DNA of 25,679 nt from Candidatus Heimdallarchaeota archaeon (GCA_019056785.1 DXJV01000013.1:1-25679); one strand, 5' to 3'; numbered from the stretch's first letter, positions 4,113 through 22,462 are shown. Made by a program: numbers and translations. The notes: generated from the letters alone by a model not told the origin.

Positions 4113-4805
4113 TTATTGCTTTTTTAGAGAACCATAATTCAACAGATAATGACTTTCAAAGAAACTGTGCAAATGTTCATCATGACTGACAGTAATCACA
4201 GTAAACCCCTTATTTTTTAGTGCTGTTATCTGCTTCCAAACGATTTCTTTGTTTTCTTCATCTAAATTGCCGGTCGGTTCATCTAATAATAACAAGCTAA
4301 CATCTTTTACCAAAAGCGCTGCCAATGCTACTCTCTGTCGTTCCCCACCGCTTAAGCTTGTTGGTAACAAGTTTGCCAGGTCTACTATCTTAAGCTCTTC
4401 TAACCATTCATAAGCCCGTTCTCGCGCTGATCGCATCCCCACTCCTGTTAAGAGTGCTTGGGCTTCGATGAATTGCTTGACTGTCAAATGCGAAGGGAGA
4501 TAAGGGCTTTGGAATAAATAACCGATTTTTTTTCTTATGGCATATATTTCATCTAAAGGGCTTTCTTTTGTTATTTTTTTCCCAAAGATTTTACGTTCAC
4601 CGCTCTTTTGATGTAGCATTAATGCAATTATGTGCATGAGAGTGGTTTTTCCTGAGCCTGATGGTCCCGTTATCAAACAAAATTCATTTTCATTCACTGT
4701 TAAGGAGAGATCTTTAATTACTGCTATTGATGTTGTTGTGTTTAGTGTTCTTCTTTTCTTTTCACTGAAATTGAATTGTATATTTTTTAAAGAAACTATT
4801 TCCAT
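4113..4805 (-). CDS. ABC transporter ATP-binding protein (LolD/MacB-like)
   Basis: Walker A GPSGSGKT, signature LSGGERQR, Walker B LLLLDEPTGNLD, H-loop VSHD. Confidence 0.93.
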   Translation of the reverse strand: MEIVSLKNIQFNFSEKKRRTLNTTTSIAVIKDLSLTVNENEFCLITGPSGSGKTTLMHIIALMLHQKSGERKIFGKKITKESPLDEIYAIRKKIGYLFQSPYLPSHLTVKQFIEAQALLTGVGMRSARERAYEWLEELKIVDLANLLPTSLSGGERQRVALAALLVKDVSLLLLDEPTGNLDEENKEIVWKQITALKNKGFTVITVSHDEHLHSFFESHYLLNYGSLKKQ

Positions 4806-5515
4806 TTAATTACCCTCCGTCCTTCTATTTTAAATGTGGTAGCCGGTTCAATAATTGTCATGTCATGTGTGGAGATAATAATTAAGCTTCTAATTGTTTC
4901 ATTTAGCTTTTTTAATAGAGTAAGAATCGTTTCCTTATTTTCTGCATCTAATTGCGCTGTGGGTTCATCCAATAACAAAAGAGAGGGATTATGAATCATA
5001 CTACAAGCTAAGGCTAAGCGTCGTAATTCACCACCGGAAAGAGAAAGTGTTTTTTGATTGAGTAATGACTCGAGATTTAGAGTGGTTGCTATCTCTTCTA
5101 CCTGTTTTTTTTCTTCTTCTCTTCCAGTTTTACGATAAAGCCTAAGGGAATATGTCAAATTCCTTCTTGCTGATAATGACAATGAAAGATATCTTGCTGG
5201 AAATTGATCCATATATCCCACACTTTTAAAATAATCAATTTTTTCTTTTCCTTTTAAAGTATGAATTGCTTGCCCGTTTAGAAAGACTTCGCCTGCACTT
5301 AACGGTTCTATTCCCATTAACATTCGCAATAGAGTAGTTTTTCCAGAGCCAGAGGGACCAATAATAAAATTTAAGTTGCCGGCACTCATTTCAAAAGACG
5401 CACCAGCAAAAATGGCGATATTTGTTTCTTTTTTCACTGGATGTGGAAAAATCTTTGTTATTTCTATTGCTTGAAGTTTGTTTTCGATGTTGCTATTATT
5501 TTTGTTATCTGTCAT
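4796..5515 (-). CDS. ABC transporter ATP-binding protein (LolD/MacB-like)
   Basis: GPSGSGKT, LSGGELRR, LLLLDEPTAQLD, STHD; overlaps the next gene by 10 nt; RBS-like GTGAGG upstream. Confidence 0.93.
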   Translation of the reverse strand: MTDNKNNSNIENKLQAIEITKIFPHPVKKETNIAIFAGASFEMSAGNLNFIIGPSGSGKTTLLRMLMGIEPLSAGEVFLNGQAIHTLKGKEKIDYFKSVGYMDQFPARYLSLSLSARRNLTYSLRLYRKTGREEEKKQVEEIATTLNLESLLNQKTLSLSGGELRRLALACSMIHNPSLLLLDEPTAQLDAENKETILTLLKKLNETIRSLIIISTHDMTIIEPATTFKIEGRRVIKWK

Positions 5516-5533
5516 TTGTCCTCACACTTCCAC

Positions 5534-8275
5534 TTATTCCGGGTAGCGATAAATTTCGCTTAAATCTATCTGATAATAGCGCCAATATTCCAAGCCATTT
5601 TGTACTGCCAAAAGAGTCGCAAAAAGTAAAAATAATATTATTGAATAAAGCAATGAAGAAGTTGATATGCCTACTAATCCTAAAGACAAGCAACTAATTG
5701 CCGGGAGAATGAGAAATGCCACAAAAAAGTTGATGAGAAAAATCATTCCAAGTGAGGCTAATAAAATAGCATCTTCAATAAGGAGGGTTTTTCGAAATGG
5801 CAAACGATAATCACTTTGCATTGCCACTAACCCCAATGTCTTAGCTGCTGGATCATTTACCAGCTCTTCAAGCTGTTGGAAAAGGAAAAATGCGCCAAAA
5901 AAGAATAAGCCTATTTCAAATAGTATTATTATAGGTATTAAAAAGACAATTCGTATGCCTGTGAATACGAGAGTGTCTAATGCTGTAAGTTTAACAAATG
6001 ACTCTCCCAATCCTTTCAAGTGTGGCTCGAGATAACTAATAGTCGCATTGATCTTCTTCGGTTGGATATGTAAATAATAGTTTACACTAAAATTATTCTC
6101 TCCTAAAAGAATTAAAGAGGTTTGTAAAGCAGAAGCGGGCATAATAATAATGAGTTCATTTCTACTATCATATTTATCGCATAGGACAGGCCAATCTTCA
6201 ATGAACCCGCCTATTTGATACTTTGAGCCATCAATAAATTCTATTATATCACCAATTAAAAACTCTAAAGATTTAAACCTATTACTGACGTAAAGCATTG
6301 AGGTGTTTGTACTAGTCAACTCACCTTCAGCAAGCCAATGTTTTTTATTCCAATTACTATAGAAGTTAAAATAATCTTCAGGGGAAATACCAAATAAATA
6401 AGCAGTTTGGTTCTCGAGATCTGTCTTAATTAAGGTGTGATTATCATAAGCTGTCATGTGATAGCTTTTTAGTACTGAAGTAAAATCTTCAATTGCAGAA
6501 TAGTTTTCCAGAAATGGATTTATGCTATCAATGTTAGGCAACTCTTTGGTTGTAATGGTTATCTCCGCTCCCTGAATATAAATATAACTCGAGGTGTAGC
6601 TGTCTGCAGTAAAGGTAGAATAAAAAAGCATTGAACTAATGAATGTCAAAGCAAATAAATAGATAAACATTTTTTGCGTCAAAGCTTTTTGTCTAAATTT
6701 AAAAAGAATGAAAGCTTTTGAAGCCGGTTTATTAGTCTTTAATTTATTTTTTACCTTTAATTGAATTATACCATTAACTAAAAAACGCATAAAATAATAA
6801 AAGAGGAAAGAGATAATTCCAACACCTATAATAATTCCTAACTCAATTAATGTAGCAAAATAGTCTCGGTAATTTAGTAACCAAGTAAATAGAACTAACA
6901 GTATAAAGCCAATACCACCTTTTAGACTCCTTCTCATTTTCCCCAAAGGGCGATATTCTTCTGAGTACAAACCTTTTACAAGGACCCTCCGAAGGTAAAA
7001 ATCAAAGTCAATAAAAGTGCTTAATATTAAAGTAAAAAGTACAACAAGACAGATACTCGCTCCTATGAAAATGTTGTTAGTGAAAACGAACCTCGTTCCG
7101 CCAAAGACAACTTGTAATCGTATAAATGGAAAGAGCAATAGGATAACAATTAAACTTGCCCCTAAGGAGATTAGTAAACTTTCCATGAATAGCCAAAGAA
7201 TCCTTTTGCGCCAAGAAATACCGCTTAGGATTGTTCTGAGTTCTTTATAGATGTTGCTCTTTTGTAATTTTGCTATAGTTAAGGCAATTAAGAATATTGA
7301 TAATAGCCAAACAAATATCTGAATAATTCTAATAAATGAATAAATAAGATATATTAACGGATTTTCCGATACAAAAAAGGATTCCATCAAGCTGCTAGGT
7401 TCTTGAACCAAAGTAAAAGTGCGTTCGATTGCTTTTAATTCAGATATTAATAATTTCAGAAACGAATGAACCTTACCGGGTGAATCTATCGACCAATACA
7501 TAATATCTCGTTGAAAAACTGTGAATTTCACAAAGGCATAAATACTCCATCGACCGGAAAACTGTTTTTTTACCGGTTGAAAAATTTCAGCGAATTTTCC
7601 TAATGGCATGAGGATAAGATGGTTTGCTTCTTGCAAGTTACGCTTTGATAAAAAATCATAAAAAGTAGGAAAATCCCTTCGGAATAAATCTTCTAATAAA
7701 TATGAAGTTATATTTAGTTGGAAATTAAAAGTGTTGTTTGTCCCATAAATTTGATAACTAAAAAGCCACTCTCCCAATGATATTGTTGACTGATTTGTAA
7801 TAATTAATGCATCCGTTTCAACATTCCCTTCTGAAACATTTAACAAAGACAAAAAAAGATCATTTGGAAGGCCTATCAGTAGTGTCTGATTAGTACTTTC
7901 GGTAAAATTCCACCCCGTTACAACTTCTTCAGATAAGGCAACCACTCTTTGTGGTTGATAAAGGCCAAAACTCTCTATTGAGCATTTTTCAACGATAGCA
8001 GAAAAATTATTCAAAAAAATTATTGATTCTTCACTCCAGGCATCAAAGATTTCAAAATCATTACCTGCTGCAAAACTATCTTCGAAATTTGAACTAAAAC
8101 TTTTTCCGGACCATCCTTGGCTAAAACTGTAAAAATGCTTGCGTAAAATGTGGGGGTTTGCTAATTGTGGGATAAAAAGCACTGAAATTGATGTTAGAAG
8201 AAGGAAACCACAAATAAGACTTATTTTCACAAGCATTCTCTTCCTTTCGAGAAGTCGATGTATAAACATTTTCAA
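5534..8275 (-). CDS. Large FtsX/MacB-like ABC permease (divergent)
   Basis: 913 aa with two extracellular domains separated by TM clusters; GAEITI motif comparable to GADILV/GSDILI in the other two permeases; directly upstream of two ABC ATPases. Confidence 0.75.
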   Translation of the reverse strand: MKMFIHRLLERKRMLVKISLICGFLLLTSISVLFIPQLANPHILRKHFYSFSQGWSGKSFSSNFEDSFAAGNDFEIFDAWSEESIIFLNNFSAIVEKCSIESFGLYQPQRVVALSEEVVTGWNFTESTNQTLLIGLPNDLFLSLLNVSEGNVETDALIITNQSTISLGEWLFSYQIYGTNNTFNFQLNITSYLLEDLFRRDFPTFYDFLSKRNLQEANHLILMPLGKFAEIFQPVKKQFSGRWSIYAFVKFTVFQRDIMYWSIDSPGKVHSFLKLLISELKAIERTFTLVQEPSSLMESFFVSENPLIYLIYSFIRIIQIFVWLLSIFLIALTIAKLQKSNIYKELRTILSGISWRKRILWLFMESLLISLGASLIVILLLFPFIRLQVVFGGTRFVFTNNIFIGASICLVVLFTLILSTFIDFDFYLRRVLVKGLYSEEYRPLGKMRRSLKGGIGFILLVLFTWLLNYRDYFATLIELGIIIGVGIISFLFYYFMRFLVNGIIQLKVKNKLKTNKPASKAFILFKFRQKALTQKMFIYLFALTFISSMLFYSTFTADSYTSSYIYIQGAEITITTKELPNIDSINPFLENYSAIEDFTSVLKSYHMTAYDNHTLIKTDLENQTAYLFGISPEDYFNFYSNWNKKHWLAEGELTSTNTSMLYVSNRFKSLEFLIGDIIEFIDGSKYQIGGFIEDWPVLCDKYDSRNELIIIMPASALQTSLILLGENNFSVNYYLHIQPKKINATISYLEPHLKGLGESFVKLTALDTLVFTGIRIVFLIPIIILFEIGLFFFGAFFLFQQLEELVNDPAAKTLGLVAMQSDYRLPFRKTLLIEDAILLASLGMIFLINFFVAFLILPAISCLSLGLVGISTSSLLYSIILFLLFATLLAVQNGLEYWRYYQIDLSEIYRYPE

Positions 8276-13243: not shown

Positions 13244-13283
13244 TGGTATACCTCTTACGGAGCTATACCAGCTGTTTTTTTTT
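13244..13283 (+). terminator. Stem-loop plus T9 after the BspA pseudogene
   Basis: TGGTATAcCTC-ttacg-GAGcTATACCA followed by GCTG and T9. Confidence 0.55.
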
Positions 13284-13445
13284 CTTAAAAACATTGGAAG
13301 GTGGCTTTTCTTATTGCTCGAAAAATTTTTGAGTTGAATTGTTTTTTTTTGACTTGTCTTTACTCATTACTATCTATGATTTTGAGTCTAGACCAAGCAT
13401 TATTATTTAGGAAGTTATTTCCAAATAGAAATTATCCGGATTGAA

Positions 13446-15386
13446 ATGCTTATGATGTCTGTTGAAAAAATCTGTGAAATGTATGCTTTGAAAAACGCTT
13501 TGGAGTTTGGTAAAGCAGAAGTTAACCCTCTTATGCGAATAATCTTAGGAAAGCATTCCGAGTTGCGAACCAGAGCAAAAGAGGTTAAGGAAATCTTAGA
13601 ACGAGTTGTTGAAGAAATCAACAAATTGAAGAAAGAGGAAATTGAGAAAAGACTTTTGAAAAAATATCCTAAACTCCTTCAAGCAGAGAATTCAACAGTT
13701 GGCAAACAAGAACCAGAAATCGATTTTATTCGTGAAATGATTAATGAGGACATACGGACTGGTCGTTTTGGGGGGCGTGTCCACACTCGTTTCCCACCGG
13801 AACCTAATGGGTACCTTCATATTGGTCATGCAAAATCAATCAACCTTAATTATGGCATTGCACAAGATTACAATGGAAAATTCAATCTTCGCTTTGACGA
13901 TACCAATCCACTCACTGAAGAAGTGGAATATGTAAACAGTATTATTGAGGATGTTAAGTGGCTTGGCGCTGATTTTGAGGATCGATTATTCTTTGCCTCT
14001 GACTATTTTGATAAAATGTTCGAGTATGCACTTCAGCTTGTTGAAAAAGGTTTAGCATATGTCGATGACTCGAGTATTGAGCAAATACGAAAGGATCGAG
14101 GAACACTCACCCAGCCGGGAAAAGAAAGTCCTTATCGTAATCGCTCCATTGAAGAGAATAGAGATCTCTTTTTGCGTATGAAGAACGGAGAGTTTCCTGA
14201 GGGTTCAAAAGTCCTGCGAGCAAAAATTGATATGGCACATCCCAACTTGCTAATGCGCGACCCGATTATCTACAGGATTATTCATGCAAGCCATCATAGA
14301 ACAGGTGATAAATGGTGCATTTATCCGACCTACGACTGGGCGCATGGTTTGGAGGACTCAATTGAGGGTATAACTCATTCTATTTGTACTCTTGAGTTCG
14401 AGGTTCATAGGGAGTTGTATGACTGGTATTTGGACCAATTAACAGATGAAGAAGGAAAACCAATTTATCACCCTCAACAAATTGAATTCGCACGATTAAA
14501 TATCTCACATATTGTTCTTAGTAAAAGAAAGCAATTACGGCTGGTAAATGAAGGCTATGTTCGAGGTTGGGATGATCCTCGACTTTTAACTATTGCTGGT
14601 ATGCGTCGTGGGGGCATTACACCAGAAGCGATCAAGAAATTCACAGATCTCATCGGTGTCACGAAAAGAAATACCATCATCGATAGATCCATCTTCGACA
14701 AGTGCATCAGGGAGGATTTAGATGAACGTTGCTCTCGAGTTATGGCAGTATTACAGCCCTTAAAAGTTGTAATTACCAATTACCCAGAAAACAAAACCGA
14801 AACGCTCACCGCATCCAATCATCCCCGGAAAATAGAGATGGGTACGAGAAAAATAATCTTTACAAGAGAATTATATATCGAACGGGATGACTTTGCTGAG
14901 CAACCACCAAAAGGATTTAAACGCCTTTCGCCAGGGAAGGACGTACGATTGAAATATGCCTATATCATCAAATGTGAAAAAGTCATCAAAAATAAAAAAG
15001 GTGAAGTGATTGAGCTTCGTTGCAGCTATGACCCTGAATCAAAAAGCGGGGAAAAGGGCGAAGGACGAAAAGTGCAAGGAACAATCCATTGGCTTTCTGC
15101 TAAAAATGCAGCTAAAGCTGAAGTCCGCCTTTATGACCGGTTATTTTTAAAAGAAGATCCGCTCGAGACAGAAGAAGGAAAGGAATTCATTGACTATCTT
15201 AACCCAAATTCACTTACCATTGTAGGGGGCTTTGTAGAAGCACACCTCAAAAAAGCTGCCCCCGGCTCGAGGTACCAATTCGAACGATTAGGCTATTTTA
15301 ACATCGATCCTGTCGACTCGAGTGCGAACCATTTAGTTTTCAACAGAATTATTACCTTGAAGGATACATGGGCAAAGAACACTTAA
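13446..15386 (+). CDS. glnS: Glutamine--tRNA ligase (GlnRS) with archaeal GluRS-like N-terminal domain
   Basis: DFIREMINED, VHTRFPPEPNGYLHIGHAKS (HIGH), LRFDDTNP, WCIYPTYDW, HSICTLEF (Cys as in GlnRS, not the GluRS HxxRG), PQQIEFARL, LSKRK, GWDDPR, YQFERLGYF, VFNRIITLKDTW. Confidence 0.93.
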   Translation: MLMMSVEKICEMYALKNALEFGKAEVNPLMRIILGKHSELRTRAKEVKEILERVVEEINKLKKEEIEKRLLKKYPKLLQAENSTVGKQEPEIDFIREMINEDIRTGRFGGRVHTRFPPEPNGYLHIGHAKSINLNYGIAQDYNGKFNLRFDDTNPLTEEVEYVNSIIEDVKWLGADFEDRLFFASDYFDKMFEYALQLVEKGLAYVDDSSIEQIRKDRGTLTQPGKESPYRNRSIEENRDLFLRMKNGEFPEGSKVLRAKIDMAHPNLLMRDPIIYRIIHASHHRTGDKWCIYPTYDWAHGLEDSIEGITHSICTLEFEVHRELYDWYLDQLTDEEGKPIYHPQQIEFARLNISHIVLSKRKQLRLVNEGYVRGWDDPRLLTIAGMRRGGITPEAIKKFTDLIGVTKRNTIIDRSIFDKCIREDLDERCSRVMAVLQPLKVVITNYPENKTETLTASNHPRKIEMGTRKIIFTRELYIERDDFAEQPPKGFKRLSPGKDVRLKYAYIIKCEKVIKNKKGEVIELRCSYDPESKSGEKGEGRKVQGTIHWLSAKNAAKAEVRLYDRLFLKEDPLETEEGKEFIDYLNPNSLTIVGGFVEAHLKKAAPGSRYQFERLGYFNIDPVDSSANHLVFNRIITLKDTWAKNT

Positions 15387-15419
15387 CCTTCTCTAAAAGA
15401 AAAAAAAGAACGAAGAGAT

Positions 15420-15794
15420 TCAGGTATTGGGAACATAAATATCATGAATCTCTATGGGAATTGCCAATTCAAAGGATCCAATTTGAATTGTCACTTCACC
15501 ATTAATGATGCCCACATGTAACTGGTTCTTTATATAATATTCGTCATATAATCAAATGCCTTGTTCAATATTGCTTTCTGAAAAAGTAAAACTTTCTTGG
15601 AGAGAACCTTCTCCAGAAATTGTTCGTGGGGCTGCAGTCCAGTTGAAGTCTAAAGGTGTCAGAGAAATATTCGTTAGAATAGTATAGTCCCAAGTAGCTA
15701 CAAATGGAATCTCATAATAAGCACCATCGCCATCATCATAAACTAGAAACCCAGTAAAAGAAGTAATATTTATTTCAAAATTAACAAGGTTATA
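15420..15794 (-). pseudogene. 3' remnant of a secreted beta-rich protein gene, not in the ORF track
   Basis: Minus frame YNLVNFEINITSFTGFLVYDDGDGAYYEIPF...QGI*(TGA 15552-15554)LYDEYYIKNQLHVGIINGEVTIQIGSFELAIPIEIHDIYVPNT*; ~124 codons with one internal stop and no start codon. Confidence 0.6.
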
Positions 15795-16120
15795 ACAATA
15801 TGATTTATCTCACTTTTAGTGAAGAAATGAATAGTTTGAAGGCGTGGGCAAAAGACACTTCAGGAAATATCAGCACGGCAACAGCCACTTTTTATGTCTC
15901 GAGACCCAATTTCACCACATAATGTGACACGAAAAATACTTCTCCAGGTTCGAGTGCTGAGAATCAGCTGTAACTGCCGTTGGAACCCATCGGCGTGTAT
16001 AATTTTCTCATCGATTGGCGTGATGGTACAAGCGGCCGCATCACTTTTTGGAACCAAGCTACAACAGTTCATAACTATGACCTATGCAGGAATTCATAAA
16101 TACCACTTTTAAGGCATATA
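15791..16120 (+). pseudogene. Second, more decayed BspA/DUF285-type fragment
   Basis: MNSLKAWAKDTSGNISTATATFYVSRPNFTT*CDTKNTSPGSSAENQL*LPLEPIGVYNFLIDWRDGTS, collinear with ~12706-13020; stops at 15920 and 15971; frameshift near 16080. Confidence 0.8.
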
Positions 16121-16161
16121 CATTTTAAGGCGTTTAAACCAACATTTTGTTTTTAATTGCA

Positions 16162-16177
16162 AAAGAAAAATTTAAAA
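16162..16177 (+). promoter_or_regulatory. BRE/TATA promoter of the tRNA gene
   Basis: Purine-rich AAAGAAAAA followed by TTTAAAA, ~40 nt upstream of the mature 5' end. Confidence 0.55.
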
Positions 16178-16213
16178 CAGAGTGAGAAACTACAAAAGTG
16201 ATAACGAAACCAT

Positions 16214-16352
16214 AGGCCTGTGGTGTAGAGTGCCGAGAAATTCAAGCCGGCATGCACACTGGCAAGCATAAGGGACTTTGAAAGAAGTACCTGATAGCTT
16301 CGGGATTTCCAAGAATCCCTTGATCGGAGTTCGAATCTCCGCAGGCCTACCA
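16214..16352 (+). tRNA. tRNA-Gln(UUG) with two introns (16230-16258 at position 16/17; 33-nt anticodon-loop intron, best fit 16283-16315 at 38/39); CCA encoded
   Basis: Acceptor AGGCCTG/CAGGCCT-A-CCA; D-stem GTGT/GCAT; anticodon stem AGGGA/TCCCT with spliced loop CTTTGAA; T-arm CGGAG-TTCGAAT-CTCCG; mature length 77 nt; both inserts fold into bulge-helix-bulge-like motifs. Confidence 0.92.
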
Positions 16353-16355
16353 ACC

Positions 16356-16362
16356 TTTTTTT
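16356..16362 (+). terminator. Oligo-T terminator after the tRNA
   Basis: T7 starting 4 nt after CCA. Confidence 0.6.
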
Positions 16363-16557
16363 CAACAAATAATTAGACGATTTTATGAGATATGAGCTTA
16401 AAACAATTAAAAAACGACAAATGTAAATCCTGACTCAAAGTAATTCCGAAAACTTCCGCACGCTTAACATTTCCGGAAAAAAGGACAAATTGTCAATATT
16501 TTTTTAGATCGGTTTCAAGATTAAAAAAAGACAAAGGGAATGTGTAAAAGAATGCTA

Positions 16558-19374
16558 TTATAGCTGCTTAATCCCTTTTATTGTGTCTTTTCTGAATATT
16601 ATCCAAGAGGTAAGTGCTGCTGCAGCTAATGCTATTGAGAACAAAAGCACAAAGGCTAATGCAAATTGCCATTGTGGGATGATTAGTCGTACCGGCGGGA
16701 GGGTATAATCTATCGTCAATATTTCGAGGAACATTTTTGCTGAGAAGATACCGATTGCAGCACCGAGGACAGAGCCAAAAAGGACGATGGATAGTGCTTC
16801 ATAAGTGAACAAGCTAAACAATTGTTTAGGAGACATCCCCAATGTTTTCAACATTACGACTTCCATCTCATTTTCAATGGATTGGATGATAATCATAAGC
16901 GAAAGTGCCGCAACAATGATAACCAATGATGAGATGAACGAGGTATTTAAAGAGCCATAGAGCATTGTATTTCGCAAGCTGTCTCCCGAGGTTTTCATTA
17001 AGTCTTCTATGTTATCTACCGACCGTCCAAGTGTTAGCTCGATGTTTCGTGCGACCGTTGTGATAGAATAACCTGGGGCAACTTTCACCAGCAAATCACC
17101 TACGACACTAAATTGATTATAAGCCACTGCTTCTGTCAAGTTATAATTCCCAATGACGCTAAACCGATAGACTGTTGACCCTTCTCGCGGATAATTCATA
17201 AAGAATCGAGGGAAGTAATTGTATTGCCCAACGACTGTCAAGTTTAAACCTATAAGACCTGTTCCAGATTTCTCTACCCAGAGGACAATTTTACTATCAT
17301 CTACTACTCCCACTTGTCGTGCTTCATCTTTTTGCATGAGGACTTCAGAGGGACTCTGGATACGATCAAAGAACGCTTCTGGTTTGCCATCAAAATAGTT
17401 CTTTTCAAAATGAGCAACTTTTACAAATTCTTCTGGATCAATCCCAACAACTAGATAGGAATAGAGTACAGAGCCGTAACTAACCAATTGGCTGGTAAAT
17501 CTCACATATGTTCCGGCTTCCACGCCCTCTACACCTAAAACTTGCTCTTTAATGGTGTCAGTTGAGACTTTAACATTCCGAACAAGAATATCTGCTCCCA
17601 AGGAATAATAGGCTTGTTCAGCGTCATAATTTTTATAAGAGGAAATGGTTGTCATTGAAGAAATGATTAGTGTAAAGGTGAGGGATATTAACACCAAGGA
17701 TCTGATAACTGCGTTTCTTCTCCGCAGGCTTCGTTTCGCAGCTAAACCAAGAATGCCTAGCCGAGAGCGCTTCCAACCGATTTTTCCGAGGAGCTTAATA
17801 AAGTAGGGATAAATCCTTGTAACAAAGAGAATACTTCCAAGGATTAAGCAAACAGGGGCAGTTGTGCCAAAACCATACGCGAAGGAATAGGTTGCTAACC
17901 CTTTAAGTTGCAATTTGACAACAATCCAGAGTGAAACACCAATTACGATCAAAATAACATCTAGAAACATTTTTTGCCATGTGGGCTTCTTTTGAATGGT
18001 TGTCCCATAGGCCTCTTCTGTAGAGATATTACTCATCTCCCAGATAGATTTAGCATTAATTATTGTCGAAAAAATAAAGGCCGTCGCGATTATCGTGAAA
18101 AAGATTATCAAATTTATTGCCGGAAAAAGGCTCGTACCGGAAAAAGCTAAGAATCCGCTACTTCGAATCATTAGCCAAGCAAAAGGATAGCCAATGACAA
18201 AACAAATGAGTATGGCCATAATAGTGTACTCTACCACTTGAAAAGTTAGAAGAGTTAAGACTTCCTTTCTCGAGGAGCCTCTTTGGAGCATGTTAGAGAT
18301 GTGTCGTTTCTGTCGTTTTTTCATTAAATGAGTGGAATAATTCGTTAAAGAGAGAGCCATACCAATAATTGGCGTTATAAATAAGAGACCAAAAAGCTGG
18401 AAAATAACAAACTCTTCATTGAACTCGTATAACCGGTCCACAAGGTCCAAATCTATTTGTGCTGGAAGATCCAGTTCATCAAAAACACGTGCAAGCTCTT
18501 GCCCTAATTGCTGGAGATTTTTTATCTCACCTCCCACATTAAAAGCATCGATTTTTCGAAGGTCAAAAGCAAACCTGCATTTAAAGCCAGCAAATCCCTT
18601 GTCATAATTAATACGGTTAATAAAATTGAATAATCCATCGTATTTTGTTATAAGAAACTGATCTGTTAGATAATCGTCGAGCGCACGCATGTCTTCTTTT
18701 AGTGGCCCTAGATAATTCTCGAAATCCTCTGCTGCGACTACGCCGGTAATGTTAATATAATTTCCTGCTTCCGGGATTCCCAGCTCAACAGAATCCCAAA
18801 CGCTGGGGGGCATTTTTACAAAAACAGGGACATATAACGGAAAAAGTCCCAGCTTTGAAAGATTGGTGTTTTCAATCACACTTCTTTTTACTACTGCAAG
18901 CGCTTCATTTGTACGATATGGAAGGCTTCCATTATAGAGGAGTGATTCGAAGGCGCTATAATAATCGACAGGCAACCCAAAGAGACTAAGCCCTGAAATC
19001 AGCTGATCGTCCCCAGCAGGGTTATTAGAACTAAGATAAAGAATTCCCCCTCGTTCGGTAATAATATCCACACGTCGAACACGATCAACCATGCCGGCGT
19101 CTTCAATTGCTCTTTGTGTGGCATTTTTTATAGTGAAAATAATAGTCTCTCTGACATCTGTGACATCAAAAAAGTCGATTGAAACAGTAAGCTGTTTGGT
19201 TGGAGGGGTCTTATTGAAATTACTAAAAGCATCATATTGAAAACTATACATGAAAATGAGCCCCTCTGAAATAATTGCCAGGCTAATTCCCAGTCCCAAG
19301 AATATAACAATAGTGTTTTTTCTATTAAGATTGAGCATTTTGTAAAAAAATTTGATTTGCTCAAGCAGTTTCAT
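16558..19374 (-). CDS. FtsX-like ABC transporter permease with two FtsX modules
   Basis: RQKRHISNMLQRGSSRKE and ENEMEVVMLKTLGMSPKQLFSLFTYEAL coupling motifs; LGADILV; two large extracellular domains. Confidence 0.88.
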   Translation of the reverse strand: MKLLEQIKFFYKMLNLNRKNTIVIFLGLGISLAIISEGLIFMYSFQYDAFSNFNKTPPTKQLTVSIDFFDVTDVRETIIFTIKNATQRAIEDAGMVDRVRRVDIITERGGILYLSSNNPAGDDQLISGLSLFGLPVDYYSAFESLLYNGSLPYRTNEALAVVKRSVIENTNLSKLGLFPLYVPVFVKMPPSVWDSVELGIPEAGNYINITGVVAAEDFENYLGPLKEDMRALDDYLTDQFLITKYDGLFNFINRINYDKGFAGFKCRFAFDLRKIDAFNVGGEIKNLQQLGQELARVFDELDLPAQIDLDLVDRLYEFNEEFVIFQLFGLLFITPIIGMALSLTNYSTHLMKKRQKRHISNMLQRGSSRKEVLTLLTFQVVEYTIMAILICFVIGYPFAWLMIRSSGFLAFSGTSLFPAINLIIFFTIIATAFIFSTIINAKSIWEMSNISTEEAYGTTIQKKPTWQKMFLDVILIVIGVSLWIVVKLQLKGLATYSFAYGFGTTAPVCLILGSILFVTRIYPYFIKLLGKIGWKRSRLGILGLAAKRSLRRRNAVIRSLVLISLTFTLIISSMTTISSYKNYDAEQAYYSLGADILVRNVKVSTDTIKEQVLGVEGVEAGTYVRFTSQLVSYGSVLYSYLVVGIDPEEFVKVAHFEKNYFDGKPEAFFDRIQSPSEVLMQKDEARQVGVVDDSKIVLWVEKSGTGLIGLNLTVVGQYNYFPRFFMNYPREGSTVYRFSVIGNYNLTEAVAYNQFSVVGDLLVKVAPGYSITTVARNIELTLGRSVDNIEDLMKTSGDSLRNTMLYGSLNTSFISSLVIIVAALSLMIIIQSIENEMEVVMLKTLGMSPKQLFSLFTYEALSIVLFGSVLGAAIGIFSAKMFLEILTIDYTLPPVRLIIPQWQFALAFVLLFSIALAAAALTSWIIFRKDTIKGIKQL

Positions 19375-19494
19375 ACTAATTTTTCCTCAATCTGTACTTA
19401 CATTCTTAGGAACCAATTGCCTTTAATTGTCTTACTTCTACTTAAAGAAATAATACTTAACAAAATGGTTGGTTTTTTCTGGAAAAATGGATGA

Positions 19495-22302
19495 TTAAAT
19501 TTGCTTCATAGCTTTAATTGTTTCTTTTCGAAAGACGATGTAGGCTGTTAAGGCTGCTGCAATAATGGCGCTGGCAAAAAGAACAATGAACGCAAGTGAT
19601 AACTCGAGAGGACTGAAAATCATCTTCGTTGGGGGGATGACGGTCTGATATGTTAATATTTCAGTGAAAATTTTTGCAGTTAAAATGCCTGTGCCAATAC
19701 CTATAATACTACCAAAAAAGACGACTAGAATAGCTTCAATCAAAAACAGACTAAACAATTGTTTAGGCGACATTCCAAGAACTTTGAGTGTTGTTACTTC
19801 TCGCTCATTTTCTATCGATTGAATAAATATCATTAAAACAATTGCTGTGACGGTAATCACCAGTGATGAAAGAAAGGAGCTGTTCACAGAACCGTATAGC
19901 ATGATATTCCGCATACTTCCTTGAAAGGTATTCATTTGTTCCTCTACATTATCCACACCACGCCCCAATTGTTGTTCAATTGCCGTTGCAACTGCTGAAA
20001 TGGAATATCCTTCCTTGACTTTTACTAAGATATCACTGGCAATGCTATAATTAGAATAAGCAAATAAATTGACAAGAGCTTTTGTTCCAATAATCGAGAA
20101 ACGAAAGATAGGTTCCCCAGGAGTGGGAAATTCAACAAAAAAGCGTGGGAAATATTTGTAAATGCCAACTACATTCAATGATTGATTAAGTGTGCCATAT
20201 GCATATTTTTCATAACGAATATTAAATTGCTCGCCGGTATAAGTATTAATTAACTTCAGTTGGTCTTCTTGCATGACAACATCTGTTAGTGCATTAATTT
20301 TTTCAAAGAAAATTTCAGGAGATTGCCCTCTAAGATATTGCTTTTCAAAATAAGCCACTTTAGCAAACTCTGCAGGGTCAATGCCTATTACCAAATAGGA
20401 ATAAGTCAACAAGCCATAAGTAATAATTTGACTAGTAAAATGAATGGATGTAAAGCTTTCAATCCCTTCTATCGAACTGATTATTTGCTGTGTTCTGTTT
20501 GTCGTTGGGTCAACATTTCTAATTAGAATATCCGAACCTAAGTTATAATATGCCACTTCTTTGTCGAAATTTTCATAGGATTGAATTGTTATCAAAGAAG
20601 AAAAAATGATGGTGAATGTGAGAGTGATCAAGATTAAGGAACGCGTGACATCACTCTTTCGCCGGGAATTTCGTTTAGTTGCAATAGCCAAAATACCAAG
20701 TCGTCCTTTTTTCCAGGAGCGATTCGAGATGAATTTCAAAAAGATTGGATACAGCCGTGTTGCAAACATTATTACCCCTAAGACAAGTAGCACTGGTGCG
20801 GTTGTTCCAAACCCATAAGCAAATTGGTAAGCCGTTTCTTTTGTAAGCTGTGATCGAACGATTAGCCAGAGCACGATACCCACAACTATAAGAATAATGT
20901 CTAGATAGAATTTTTGCCAGGCCGCCTTTTTCACTTGATGTTCACTGTAAGCTTCTTGGGTGGTGATTTTACTCATTTCCCAAACATTCTTTGTATTAAC
21001 TATGAGCGATAATAGGAAGCCAATCCCTATAATGCTAAAAAGTATTGCAAGATTAATAAGAGGGGGTTTTCCGGCGCCTGAAAACTCGAGGAAATACGTG
21101 CTTTTAGTTAAAAACCATGTAAAGCCATAACCAATTAAAAAGCCAATCAACAATGCTGTGATTGTAAATTCCACAATCTCAACAATTAAGATGAACATAA
21201 TCTCTTTTTGAGAGGAACCACGTTGTAACATACTTGACACTTGGCGTTTTTGCCTTCTTTTCAACAAGTTAGCAGAATAGCTGGTGATTGATAACCCCAT
21301 TCCTATTAACGGTGTAAAGAAGAGAAGGCTGAATAATTGAAAAATAATGAATTCCTTTTGAAAGTCTTTCAAGTATTGTAACATATAGTTATAAATTAAT
21401 GGTTGAAATCCCTCTGCATTGAACATTCTATCAAGTTCTTGAGCAAAAGTACTTAGTTGAGTAATTTCATCGCGGATTTTAAAAGAATTTATTTTATCGA
21501 GTTTAAAGGTTATTCTCCCGGTCGCAGCAGCATACCCGGGATAATAACTAAGCTTGGAGAGAAAATAACCAAAATTAGTGTAACTTGTAAGAAGAAATTC
21601 ATCGGAAAAATAGTCAGTCATTGCAAGAAAATCTTCTCGCATTGCCCCGGCGACATTGCTAAAAACTTCTTTGGCAATCACACCACTAATATTAATATAT
21701 TGCCCTCCTGTCGGGATTCCCATATCTATTACATTTTCGAAAGATTGGAACAAGATTGGTGTATAAAGTGGAAATCTCCCTGTATCACTTAGGTTAGTGT
21801 TTAATAGCGTCGTTCCTTTGGCAACAACAAGCACATCATCAATCCTTTGAGGGAGAGTGCCATTATAAAGGATGGTTGCGAGAGTGCTAAAATAGTCCGT
21901 AGGAATTGCATAAAGGTTCAACTCCGGCAAGATAAACTCAGTTTCACTTTTCGTTTGCAAGACTGTAAAAAAACCTCGAGAGAGAAACCAGTCAACCCTT
22001 TTAATGCGCGTGGAAATGGTGCTGGTTTTCATAGCTTCATTTGTTGTCTCAAGTAAGAGAGGGACAGATTGTTCAGGGTATTCTCGGATATCATATGCAG
22101 ACAGGCTGACTGACATTTGTCGACGTGGAACACCGTTGTAAAAGCCAGTAAAAGCGCCATATTGGAAACTATAAAGAAAGAGCAACCCTTGGGAGATCAA
22201 CGCCAAGCTGATGCCTAAACCAAGAAAGGTTATGATTGTGGAACGCCGTCCCATGAGAATTAACCGGAAGTACAATTTAACTTTCTCTATGAGCTTCACC
22301 AT
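19495..22302 (-). CDS. FtsX-like ABC transporter permease, tandem paralog of the preceding gene
   Basis: RQKRQVSSMLQRGSSQKE, ENEREVTTLKVLGMSPKQLFSLFLIEA; full-length collinear with 16558-19374; start placed near 22302 by paralog alignment (ORF track gives 22323). Confidence 0.88.
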   Translation of the reverse strand: MVKLIEKVKLYFRLILMGRRSTIITFLGLGISLALISQGLLFLYSFQYGAFTGFYNGVPRRQMSVSLSAYDIREYPEQSVPLLLETTNEAMKTSTISTRIKRVDWFLSRGFFTVLQTKSETEFILPELNLYAIPTDYFSTLATILYNGTLPQRIDDVLVVAKGTTLLNTNLSDTGRFPLYTPILFQSFENVIDMGIPTGGQYINISGVIAKEVFSNVAGAMREDFLAMTDYFSDEFLLTSYTNFGYFLSKLSYYPGYAAATGRITFKLDKINSFKIRDEITQLSTFAQELDRMFNAEGFQPLIYNYMLQYLKDFQKEFIIFQLFSLLFFTPLIGMGLSITSYSANLLKRRQKRQVSSMLQRGSSQKEIMFILIVEIVEFTITALLIGFLIGYGFTWFLTKSTYFLEFSGAGKPPLINLAILFSIIGIGFLLSLIVNTKNVWEMSKITTQEAYSEHQVKKAAWQKFYLDIILIVVGIVLWLIVRSQLTKETAYQFAYGFGTTAPVLLVLGVIMFATRLYPIFLKFISNRSWKKGRLGILAIATKRNSRRKSDVTRSLILITLTFTIIFSSLITIQSYENFDKEVAYYNLGSDILIRNVDPTTNRTQQIISSIEGIESFTSIHFTSQIITYGLLTYSYLVIGIDPAEFAKVAYFEKQYLRGQSPEIFFEKINALTDVVMQEDQLKLINTYTGEQFNIRYEKYAYGTLNQSLNVVGIYKYFPRFFVEFPTPGEPIFRFSIIGTKALVNLFAYSNYSIASDILVKVKEGYSISAVATAIEQQLGRGVDNVEEQMNTFQGSMRNIMLYGSVNSSFLSSLVITVTAIVLMIFIQSIENEREVTTLKVLGMSPKQLFSLFLIEAILVVFFGSIIGIGTGILTAKIFTEILTYQTVIPPTKMIFSPLELSLAFIVLFASAIIAAALTAYIVFRKETIKAMKQI

Positions 22303-22462
22303 TGGCCAACTATCCACAACCATTTTTAATTGATTTTGCTAACTTATAACATAGTTGAGAATAATTAAGCATTATGTGTCATTTGAAAAAAGTTTGACAA
22401 AGAGCAACAAGGAAGCAAAGAATGAGAGCAGCAGCTGAAAAATAGTGGATGGAAACAAAGTA

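Follow-up and report, generated by a model that had tools for sequence, protein, structure and literature searches.

We analysed a 25,679-nucleotide stretch of DNA (the window), which is contig C91 of the archaeal metagenome-assembled genome (MAG) G000 of a Candidatus Heimdallarchaeota archaeon, and in which glnS, encoding a glutaminyl-tRNA synthetase (GlnRS), is followed on the same strand by a gene for tRNA-Gln(UUG). We read the pair as a conserved module for direct glutaminylation that three Heimdallarchaeial families share, and put the probability of this reading at about 0.62. The families are f1, to which G000 belongs (genus g1), and the other GlnRS-bearing families f2 and f3. By sequence comparison, the A37 tRNA is an extra tRNA-Gln paralogue that has retained the archaeal A1-U72/A73 acceptor end, and several lineages keep G37 copies beside it (UUG/G37 in g1, full G37/A73 sets in f3). 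Compared with their unlinked counterparts, the partner tRNAs of f3, a family whose GlnRS lacks the N-terminal domain seen in the window, have also switched from A73 to G73. Both points are new relative to an initial annotation made from the window alone. We infer from these patterns that GlnRS would charge A37 tRNAs preferentially.

The chimeric synthetase and its linked tRNA-Gln

The features of the module are the following.

13446-15386, plus strand: glnS, chimeric glutaminyl-tRNA synthetase, 646 aa (TIGR00440, PRK14703 and PDB matches)
13446-13721, plus strand: N-terminal domain, residues 1-92, helical bundle and flexible linker (homology to the archaeal GluRS N-terminus)
13722-15383, plus strand: bacterial-type GlnRS core, catalytic domain and two beta-barrel anticodon-binding domains (PF00749, PF03950, PF20974)
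15522-15791, minus strand: pseudogene remnant, last ~90 codons of a DUF3712/LEA_2-like gene (tblastn with the G004 orthologue)
16150-16189, plus strand: conserved A/T-rich element, likely tRNA promoter (TTTAAAA box ~40 nt before +1)
16214-16352, plus strand: tRNA-Gln(UUG) with encoded CCA (acceptor/T-arm scan, covariance model, manual cloverleaf)
16230-16258, plus strand: intron 1, 29 nt, D-loop position 16/17 (bulge-helix-bulge)
16283-16315, plus strand: intron 2, 33 nt, anticodon loop (bulge-helix-bulge; 16282-16314 yields the same product)
16356-16362, plus strand: run of seven T after the CCA, likely archaeal terminator (read from the sequence)

The 646-aa open reading frame (ORF) scored 716 bits against the NCBIfam glnS model TIGR00440 (cut-off 426) and 865 bits against PRK14703, higher than against GluRS models; the archaeal model TIGR00463 gave 393 bits, under its cut-off of 402. 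Pfam recognised tRNA-synt_1c, _C and _C2 in it, and the best PDB matches of the product were the E. coli and P. aeruginosa GlnRS (E 1e-199), with eukaryotic GlnRS matching at 1e-132 or worse. Over residues 93-646, the product shares 60-67% identity with GlnRS of Ignavibacteriota, Bacteroidota, Chloroflexota, Planctomycetota and others. A HIGH motif lies at residues 125-128, and LSKRK aligns with MSKRK of the E. coli enzyme. The glutamine-pocket residues R30, Y211, C229, F233 and Q255 (E. coli numbering is used for GlnRS residue positions) are invariant in all 25 Heimdall GlnRS sequences that we compared (17 from f1/f2 and 8 from f3), as are all catalytic residues. Profile, motifs and pocket residues predict that the enzyme attaches glutamine, and on their strength we take the product of 13446-15386 for a genuine GlnRS whose glutamine pocket is intact. 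Relatives begin with MKSVE or MTSVE, so translation may in fact start at the Met encoded at 13452 or 13455. A separate archaeal GluRS is encoded on C47 of G000.

The N-terminus of this GlnRS matched positions 2-94 of PRK04156 (E 3e-16), and residues 6-78 are ~40% identical to residues 10-83 of the GluRS of the same genome. The homology extends across the whole ~85 residues, which places the segment in the archaeal GluRS N-terminal domain. It is absent from the 80 closest bacterial GlnRS, where matches start at residue 60-94 and in one case at 14. AlphaFold2, given 17 aligned sequences, predicted a helical bundle at residues 6-82 (predicted local distance difference test ~90) and a disordered linker at 79-94. 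The domain is present in all f1/f2 GlnRS; the f3 enzymes start ~35 residues before the catalytic core, as in bacteria, and lack it. The label YqeY attaches to it because the homologous segment of the Methanothermobacter thermautotrophicus GluRS, residues 1-85, was described as a disordered 'YQEY domain' (Nureki 2010; PMC2978374). A Pfam search with our domain gave no match to the YqeY or GatB/GatE-tail families (PF02637, PF09424) even at E 10, and a Foldseek search of the PDB with the model gave no YqeY match. VIA-align of the model returned Z 5.7 for Vibrio YqeY and Z 5.6-6.4 for the yeast and human GlnRS N-domains, both within the noise range of helical bundles.

The spliced tRNA is 74 nt long plus the encoded CCA, and folds into a cloverleaf with standard pairs only. 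The acceptor stem AGGCCUG/CAGGCCU provides A1-U72, G2-C71 and G3-C70, followed by discriminator A73; the anticodon loop CUUUGAA contains UUG, A37 and A38, and position 10 is G. Both introns show the 4-bp central helix between two 3-nt bulges that defines bulge-helix-bulge (BHB) introns. In intron 1 the central helix pairs 16224-27 with 16253-56, the bulges are GAG and CAC, and the inner helix pairs 16231-35 with 16248-52; in intron 2 the corresponding elements are 16277-80 with 16310-13, AAA and AAU, and 16284-88 with 16305-09. ARAGORN with default settings and Rfam at gathering thresholds found no tRNA in the window, and ARAGORN with introns labelled this gene Ile. The acceptor/T-arm scan and covariance model R1 (55 bits) both recovered it. 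Labels of Ile, Pro and Asp that ARAGORN -i gave to three multi-intron tRNA-Gln genes were overturned by manual and covariance-model analysis; of the 31 tRNAs that its intron search reported in G000, those with D-loop or multiple introns were mislabelled. A complete tRNA inventory of Heimdall genomes needs BHB-aware tools.

The identity set of E. coli tRNA-Gln comprises U1-A72, G2-C71, G3-C70, G10, U35, G36, A37, U38 and G73 (PMC9976931, PMC1865053), and A1-U72 is regarded as the archaeal tRNA-Gln hallmark (PMC9499178). The window tRNA has the canonical archaeal A1-U72 and A73, but A37 rather than the archaeal G37. At the acceptor end it departs from the E. coli set, since the weak 1-72 pair is reversed and position 73 is A rather than G. 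In the anticodon loop U35, G36 and A37 are present; at position 38 the window tRNA has A, and some orthologues have C.

The gap from the glnS stop to the tRNA-Gln gene is 827 nt. The remnant within it, flanked by stop codons, is 51% identical over 90 aa (tblastn, E 1e-27) to an intact 416-aa orthologue in G004 (L192:3433-4680, minus strand), on which the DUF3712/LEA_2 label from Pfam rests. In a related strain, on a 12-kb contig of run X6 from another metagenome, 1247 other nt replace the 340 nt at 15794-16133, indicating that the spacer is a site of recent deletion or replacement. The A/T-rich element before the tRNA recurs in G008, G009 and G010 as a 29-40-nt segment, 82-90% identical and equally positioned relative to the linked tRNA, and is likely its promoter; like the window tRNA, the linked tRNAs of f3 are followed by T-runs. 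An assembly from another, independent metagenome study bridges 13271-16900 with one contig, so the linkage of glnS and tRNA is not an assembly artefact. The initial annotation had described a glnS with a same-strand tRNA-Gln(UUG) ~830 nt on, gene debris between them, and a spliced tRNA with A1-U72, G2-C71, G3-C70, A37 and A73. Since enzyme, spacer, tRNA and linkage are all confirmed, these observations hold in every detail.

G000 comprises 2.87 Mb in 102 contigs, and its many BHB-intron tRNAs fit a Heimdall-group (Asgard) archaeon. At 82.5% completeness and 4% contamination, one might suspect a bacterial contaminant or chimeric contig; another alternative is a protein that no longer aminoacylates tRNA. 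The same contig, however, carries a tRNA with BHB introns and a TrmB regulator, the protein itself is half archaeal, and the module also occurs in the closed single-contig genomes G016, G026 and G262. These closed genomes, with the bridging assembly and the catalytic and pocket residues kept in 25/25 sequences, make such an artefact very unlikely, to the point that we give it almost no weight.

The surroundings of the module (4113-8275 and 16558-22323) include two tandem ~940-aa FtsX-type permease genes that flank it and, further upstream, two ABC ATPase genes that adjoin a gene for a 913-aa protein without a Pfam match.

Conservation of the linkage, and the identity positions of tRNA-Gln

A survey of 301 genomes of the phylum detected GlnRS in three families alone, in 6/10 of f1, 21/29 of f2 and 12/21 of f3, and in 0 of ~240 genomes in the 27 other families. 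Co-directional with glnS, a tRNA-Gln(UUG) gene follows after 0.1-0.8 kb in G000, G008, G009, G010, G012, G020, G024, G028, G038 and G040, and after 3-5.5 kb in G002, G004 and G005. Orthologues of the window tRNA were recovered downstream of glnS in eight congeners (G002-G005 and G007-G010) as well as in f2. In genus g7 the arrangement is a ~6-kb cluster of glnS, a UUG gene, an odd tRNA and a CUG gene. In nine f3 genomes (G017, G019, G025, G027, G029, G031, G033, G037 and closed G262), glnS converges on a tandem UUG and CUG pair that lies 48-620 nt from its stop. Exceptions are the closed G016 and G026, where the tRNAs are 13-16 kb away, G030, where they are on another contig, and the closed G248, where the distance is 117 kb. 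With about three tRNA-Gln genes per 3 Mb, the chance of finding one within 6 kb is ~1% per genome. Conservation of the glnS-tRNA synteny, which the initial annotation had proposed as a check, is thus seen in three families.

The tRNA-Gln genes recovered by acceptor/T-arm pattern search and covariance model R1, on which our inventories rest, have the following identities. The relatives include closed 3.1-3.3-Mb genomes, and most of the compared genomes are incomplete MAGs related to each other.

GlnRS-less G013, G014, G015, G018, G023, G032, G036 and G039 (f3, f4, f5, f6): G37 with A73 only
G022 (93% complete, no GlnRS found): UUG/A37 and CUG/G37
Genus g1: linked UUG with A37/A73; unlinked CUG with A37/A73; unlinked second UUG with G37/A73
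Genera g3 and g8: UUG and CUG, both A37
Genus g6 (closed, Heimdallarchaeum-like): UUG/A37 and CUG/G37 only, 13-16 kb from glnS
Genus g7: UUG with A37/A73; CUG with G37/G73
Family f3, glnS-associated: UUG and CUG, A37 and G73
Family f3, unlinked: UUG and CUG, G37 and A73, mostly with introns

A UUG tRNA with A37 was present in all GlnRS-positive genera, and nine of the ten GlnRS-negative relatives with tRNA-Gln recovered have only G37, the exception being G022; A37 thus tracks glnS, much as had been anticipated. The G37 copy of G000 is a second UUG gene (C64:3927-4032), and its CUG gene with A37 is on C49. Four tRNA-Gln genes in f3 are confirmed by the closed genomes G262 and G248. The linked and unlinked genes of that family share the acceptor stem AGCCCCG and differ at exactly positions 37 and 73, which are both identity positions for the E. 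coli enzyme (PMC9976931, PMC1865053). Their acceptor stems match the native ones, so the linked genes are duplicated archaeal tRNAs and not imports. No A37/G73 tRNA was found in the glnS-less f3 genomes examined (G013, G015, G023 and G039), and G73 occurs only in the f3 partner tRNAs and the g7 CUG tRNA. The earlier proposal that a native tRNA had co-adapted with the enzyme needs modifying: the tRNA that changed is an extra paralogue beside a retained G37 tRNA and not the native one.

Pair 3-70 behaves differently. Among linked tRNAs the pair reads G-C in that of the window, whereas the remaining g1 genomes have A-U, f2 has U-A and f3 has C-G, and this variation shows that it is not a conserved determinant. 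In E. coli GlnRS, Asp235 reportedly contacts the minor groove at G3-C70. The corresponding position is D/N in 74/80 bacterial GlnRS, V/I in 15/17 of f1/f2 (Val in the window enzyme) and T/S in 8/8 of f3, and its loss on the enzyme side agrees with the variable pair on the tRNA side. The suggestion that G3-C70 acts as a determinant here is accordingly not borne out.

These patterns suggest a mechanism. Bacterial GlnRS reshapes the anticodon loop and makes use of A37, and the archaeal G37 (normally m1G37) would interfere with this; a duplicated A37 tRNA-Gln may then have become the GlnRS substrate and be directly glutaminylated by preference. The acceptor end could have stayed archaeal, as A1-U72 is also weak and would be openable by the Leu136 wedge, with A73 retained. 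The lost contribution of the discriminator would be offset by G73 in f3, and in f1/f2 the appended GluRS-type domain would offset weak recognition of an acceptor end with A73 and no Asp235-type readout of 3-70. The idea of the initial annotation that the N-domain makes up for A73 would fit one contrast, drawn across two lineages: in f1/f2 the domain goes together with A73 partners, whereas f3 lacks it and has G73 partners. By analogy with the YqeY domain of Deinococcus GlnRS, the N-domain may act as an enhancer of tRNA affinity in cis, and ND-GluRS (non-discriminating GluRS) and GatDE would keep serving at least the G37 tRNAs.

Another explanation is a generalist GlnRS that charges every tRNA-Gln regardless of positions 37 and 73, with A37 and G73 neutral or related to decoding or modification, and a linkage that is historical, the transferred DNA having landed at, or duplicated, a tRNA gene, a frequent behaviour of integrating elements. 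The combinations at 37 and 73 do vary between genera in a way that would fit (CUG/G37 in g6 and g7, A37 without GlnRS in G022), the tRNAs in G248 and G016/G026 lie 13-117 kb from glnS, and the window spacer is rearranged, with gene debris and, in the strain variant, a 1.2-kb replacement. Against such an enzyme, the linkage is specific to tRNA-Gln, where chance would give ~1%, and it takes two forms, co-directional in f1/f2 and convergent with a tandem pair in f3. In addition, the associated and unlinked pairs of f3 differ at exactly 37 and 73 with the acceptor stem unchanged, the glnS-less genomes examined in that family yielded no A37/G73 tRNA, and neither an integrase nor a repeat was observed next to the module in the window. 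We regard a generalist enzyme as unlikely, and favour the direct-glutaminylation module.

Several observations nevertheless weigh against this module reading. A37 is not exclusive to GlnRS-positive genomes, as G022 has UUG/A37 and no GlnRS was found in it. The CUG isoacceptor of g1 exists only as A37 and is unlinked, g6 has just UUG/A37 and CUG/G37 at 13-16 kb from glnS, and the A37/G73 pair of closed G248 is 117 kb from the gene. In g7 a CUG/G37/G73 tRNA occurs despite the N-domain, which does not fit neatly with compensation by that domain. The YqeY-like fold of the N-domain, plausible from the model, gains little from the searches described above, and kinship among the genomes means that our counts overstate independence.

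An extension of the module reading is that each Heimdallarchaeia cell has two stable Gln-tRNA channels, GlnRS with A37 tRNAs (plus G73 where there is no helper domain) and ND-GluRS/GatDE with G37/A73 tRNAs, forming partly orthogonal pairs. We put this forward tentatively, as possible rather than probable. If true, the channels might be split by codon (CAA versus CAG) or by growth condition, and two lineages would have found two solutions, a discriminator mutation and an added GluRS domain, to the supposed incompatibility of GlnRS with archaea.

Unusual tRNA-Gln genes were also seen among the relatives. In g1, where the second UUG tRNA is the only G37 species, four congeners have an unusual C33 in this gene, at a position where U33 is near-universal (L101, L106, L114 and L118 of G002, G003, G006 and G007), and C33 also occurs in the CUG/G37 tRNA of G262 (L229); the loop of these genes reads CCUUGGA or, ahead of the intron, CCCUGG. 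G010 has a second tRNA-Gln(UUG) (L212, G010:C41:228195-228267) with U10, A37 and U73, a eukaryote-like combination at 37 and 73, unlike the orthologue in its sister genome G008, which has G37/A73. The odd tRNA-Gln-like gene of g7 (L198:5039-5110 in G020, L199:1165-1236 in G024, L133 in G028, L200:6306-6377 in G038) lies between both tRNA-Gln genes of the glnS cluster and has an AGCCCUG acceptor, A73 and CCA. Its anticodon loop is of 6 nt, UUUAGG, UUUCGG or UUUUGG, the fourth base varying between genomes, and compensatory changes are kept in its stems; the gene may be a native tRNA-Gln in decay, or may encode an RNA that serves another role. Finally, G005 contains an isolated tRNA 3' half (L218, G005:C48:36619-36641; T-arm, acceptor 3' strand CGGGUCU, A73, CCA). 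The 120 nt upstream of it show no recognisable 5' half, and it may be a remnant or part of a split tRNA gene.

The indirect route and the origin of the enzyme

GatD was present in 38/41 relatives and passed its cut-off in 37/41, GlnRS-positive ones included. G000 encodes GatD and GatE on C11 and has a second copy of each, the loci of these genes being C11:14702-18118, C4:4177-6132 and C2:5532-6740; the GatD duplication is also seen in G001-G011. Nearly every f1 genome has two GatD copies, and because the duplication is family-wide the duplicate in the MAG is real and not contamination. Outside f1, the only second GatD copy over the curated cut-off in the sampled families was that of the f5 genome G032. 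The GatD duplication is lineage-wide in f1.

It is conceivable that a replacement is under way, in which the direct route does essentially all decoding and the G37 tRNAs and GatDE are relics or retooled. Some tRNAs would suit such a course: C33 in the UUG/G37 genes of G002, G003, G006 and G007 and in the CUG/G37 gene of G262 looks impaired, the g7 gene has its 6-nt anticodon loop with a variable middle base, and G010 combines U10 with U73. But GatD is intact in 37/41 relatives and duplicated in f1, GatE is intact in G000, the odd tRNAs keep compensatory stem changes indicating selection, and coexistence across three families argues that the arrangement is old and stable. We find replacement decidedly improbable. 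Since GatDE is kept, the direct route of the module would supplement transamidation and not replace it; of the two outcomes that the initial annotation had allowed, supplementation is the one upheld.

A GlnRS tree was built from 163 sequences (50%-identity representatives of 1.8 billion proteins together with close bacterial matches and the Heimdall sequences), with eight Heimdall GluRS as the root. In it, an N-extended, eukaryote-like clade (support 95) separated from a bacterial-type clade (97). Heimdall GlnRS fell deep in the latter, within a 45-row group (97) containing Ignavibacteriota, Bacteroidota, Chloroflexota, Planctomycetota and others. This nesting indicates that the core came from Bacteria and that the N-domain was added later, in keeping with the suggested acquisition of a bacterial-type GlnRS with a fused N-domain, the domain itself being archaeal-GluRS-like. 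The f1/f2 enzymes form one clade (100) and the f3 enzymes another (100); the two were separated with weak support in IQ-TREE, and a single clade was not rejected (approximately unbiased test, p 0.475). An ancestral pre-eukaryotic GlnRS that kept its GluRS N-domain was rejected, because the core branches inside the bacterial-type clade and away from the N-extended one. A Thermoplasmata contig, L038, also encodes a GlnRS nested among bacterial sequences, and no tRNA-Gln was found on its 4.9 kb.

Two 2022 reviews state that archaea have no GlnRS and ascribe this to incompatibility with their tRNA-Gln (PMC9499178, PMC8762117, citing Tumbula 2000). GlnRS next to cox genes in Hodarchaeales/Kariarchaeaceae is the subject of a passing remark, without analysis, in a 2024 preprint (bioRxiv 10.1101/2024.07.04.601786); this was the only mention of a Heimdall GlnRS found in our literature search, which returned nothing on the tRNAs or the fusion. 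The window, unlike that neighbourhood, contains no cox genes. The locus and its relatives would represent a natural crossing of this barrier, through tRNA change at position 37 (and 73 in one family) and, on the enzyme side, loss of the 3-70 readout residue and gain of an archaeal tRNA-binding-type domain in two families. They turn the argument of co-evolution among tRNA-Gln, GatDE and GlnRS into directly testable mutants, and offer Heimdall GlnRS-tRNA combinations as candidate orthogonal pairs. The closest archaeal relatives of eukaryotes appear from these genomes to hold both routes to Gln-tRNA, with a GlnRS of bacterial and not eukaryotic type.

Comparison with known systems

The module resembles bacterial GlnRS (E. 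coli GlnS, 1GTR/1QTQ/1O0B; P. aeruginosa, 5BNZ) in its core domain order, its 60-67% identity, its HIGH and KMSKS-type motifs, its glutamine pocket and its wedge position Leu136, kept as L/I/V. The tRNA likewise shares G2-C71, G10, U35, G36 and A37 with that of E. coli. It differs in having A1-U72 instead of U1-A72, A73 instead of G73, A38 instead of U38 and two BHB introns, and the enzyme differs in its archaeal host, Val for Asp235 and the extra N-terminal domain.

In D. radiodurans GlnRS (2HZ7; PRK14703) we see a comparable chimera, which borrows from the indirect pathway a small helical module related to the GatB/GatE tail, joined through a flexible linker, and coexists with an amidotransferase. 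Its YqeY domain raises tRNA affinity solely in cis (Deniziak 2007; PMC1865053). That domain is C-terminal, whereas the Heimdall module, a putative counterpart in function, sits at the N-terminus, spans ~85 residues and has its homologue in the archaeal GluRS N-domain and not in free YqeY. Eukaryotic GlnRS (yeast 3TL4, human 4YE6; Grant 2012, PMC3333875) also has an N-terminal appended helical domain, a weak structural neighbour at Z 5.6-6.4. It spans ~200 residues in two subdomains, however, and the Heimdall core groups with bacterial and not eukaryotic GlnRS; there is no evidence that the two appended domains share a common descent.

The archaeal ND-GluRS and GatDE route (M. thermautotrophicus GluRS 3AII, GatDE 2D6F) is present in G000, and the linked tRNA keeps its A1-U72. 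The module would bypass this route, and its tRNA has A37 in contrast to the G37 of all GlnRS-less relatives but one. Helicobacter pylori GluRS2 and tRNA-Gln, like other duplicated synthetase-tRNA pairs, offer a parallel in that two enzymes in one cell divide Glu- and Gln-box tRNA substrates between them. There, a GluRS paralogue acts on tRNA-Gln within the indirect route, whereas Heimdallarchaeia would combine a direct with an indirect route, using duplicated tRNA-Gln genes that differ at identity positions.

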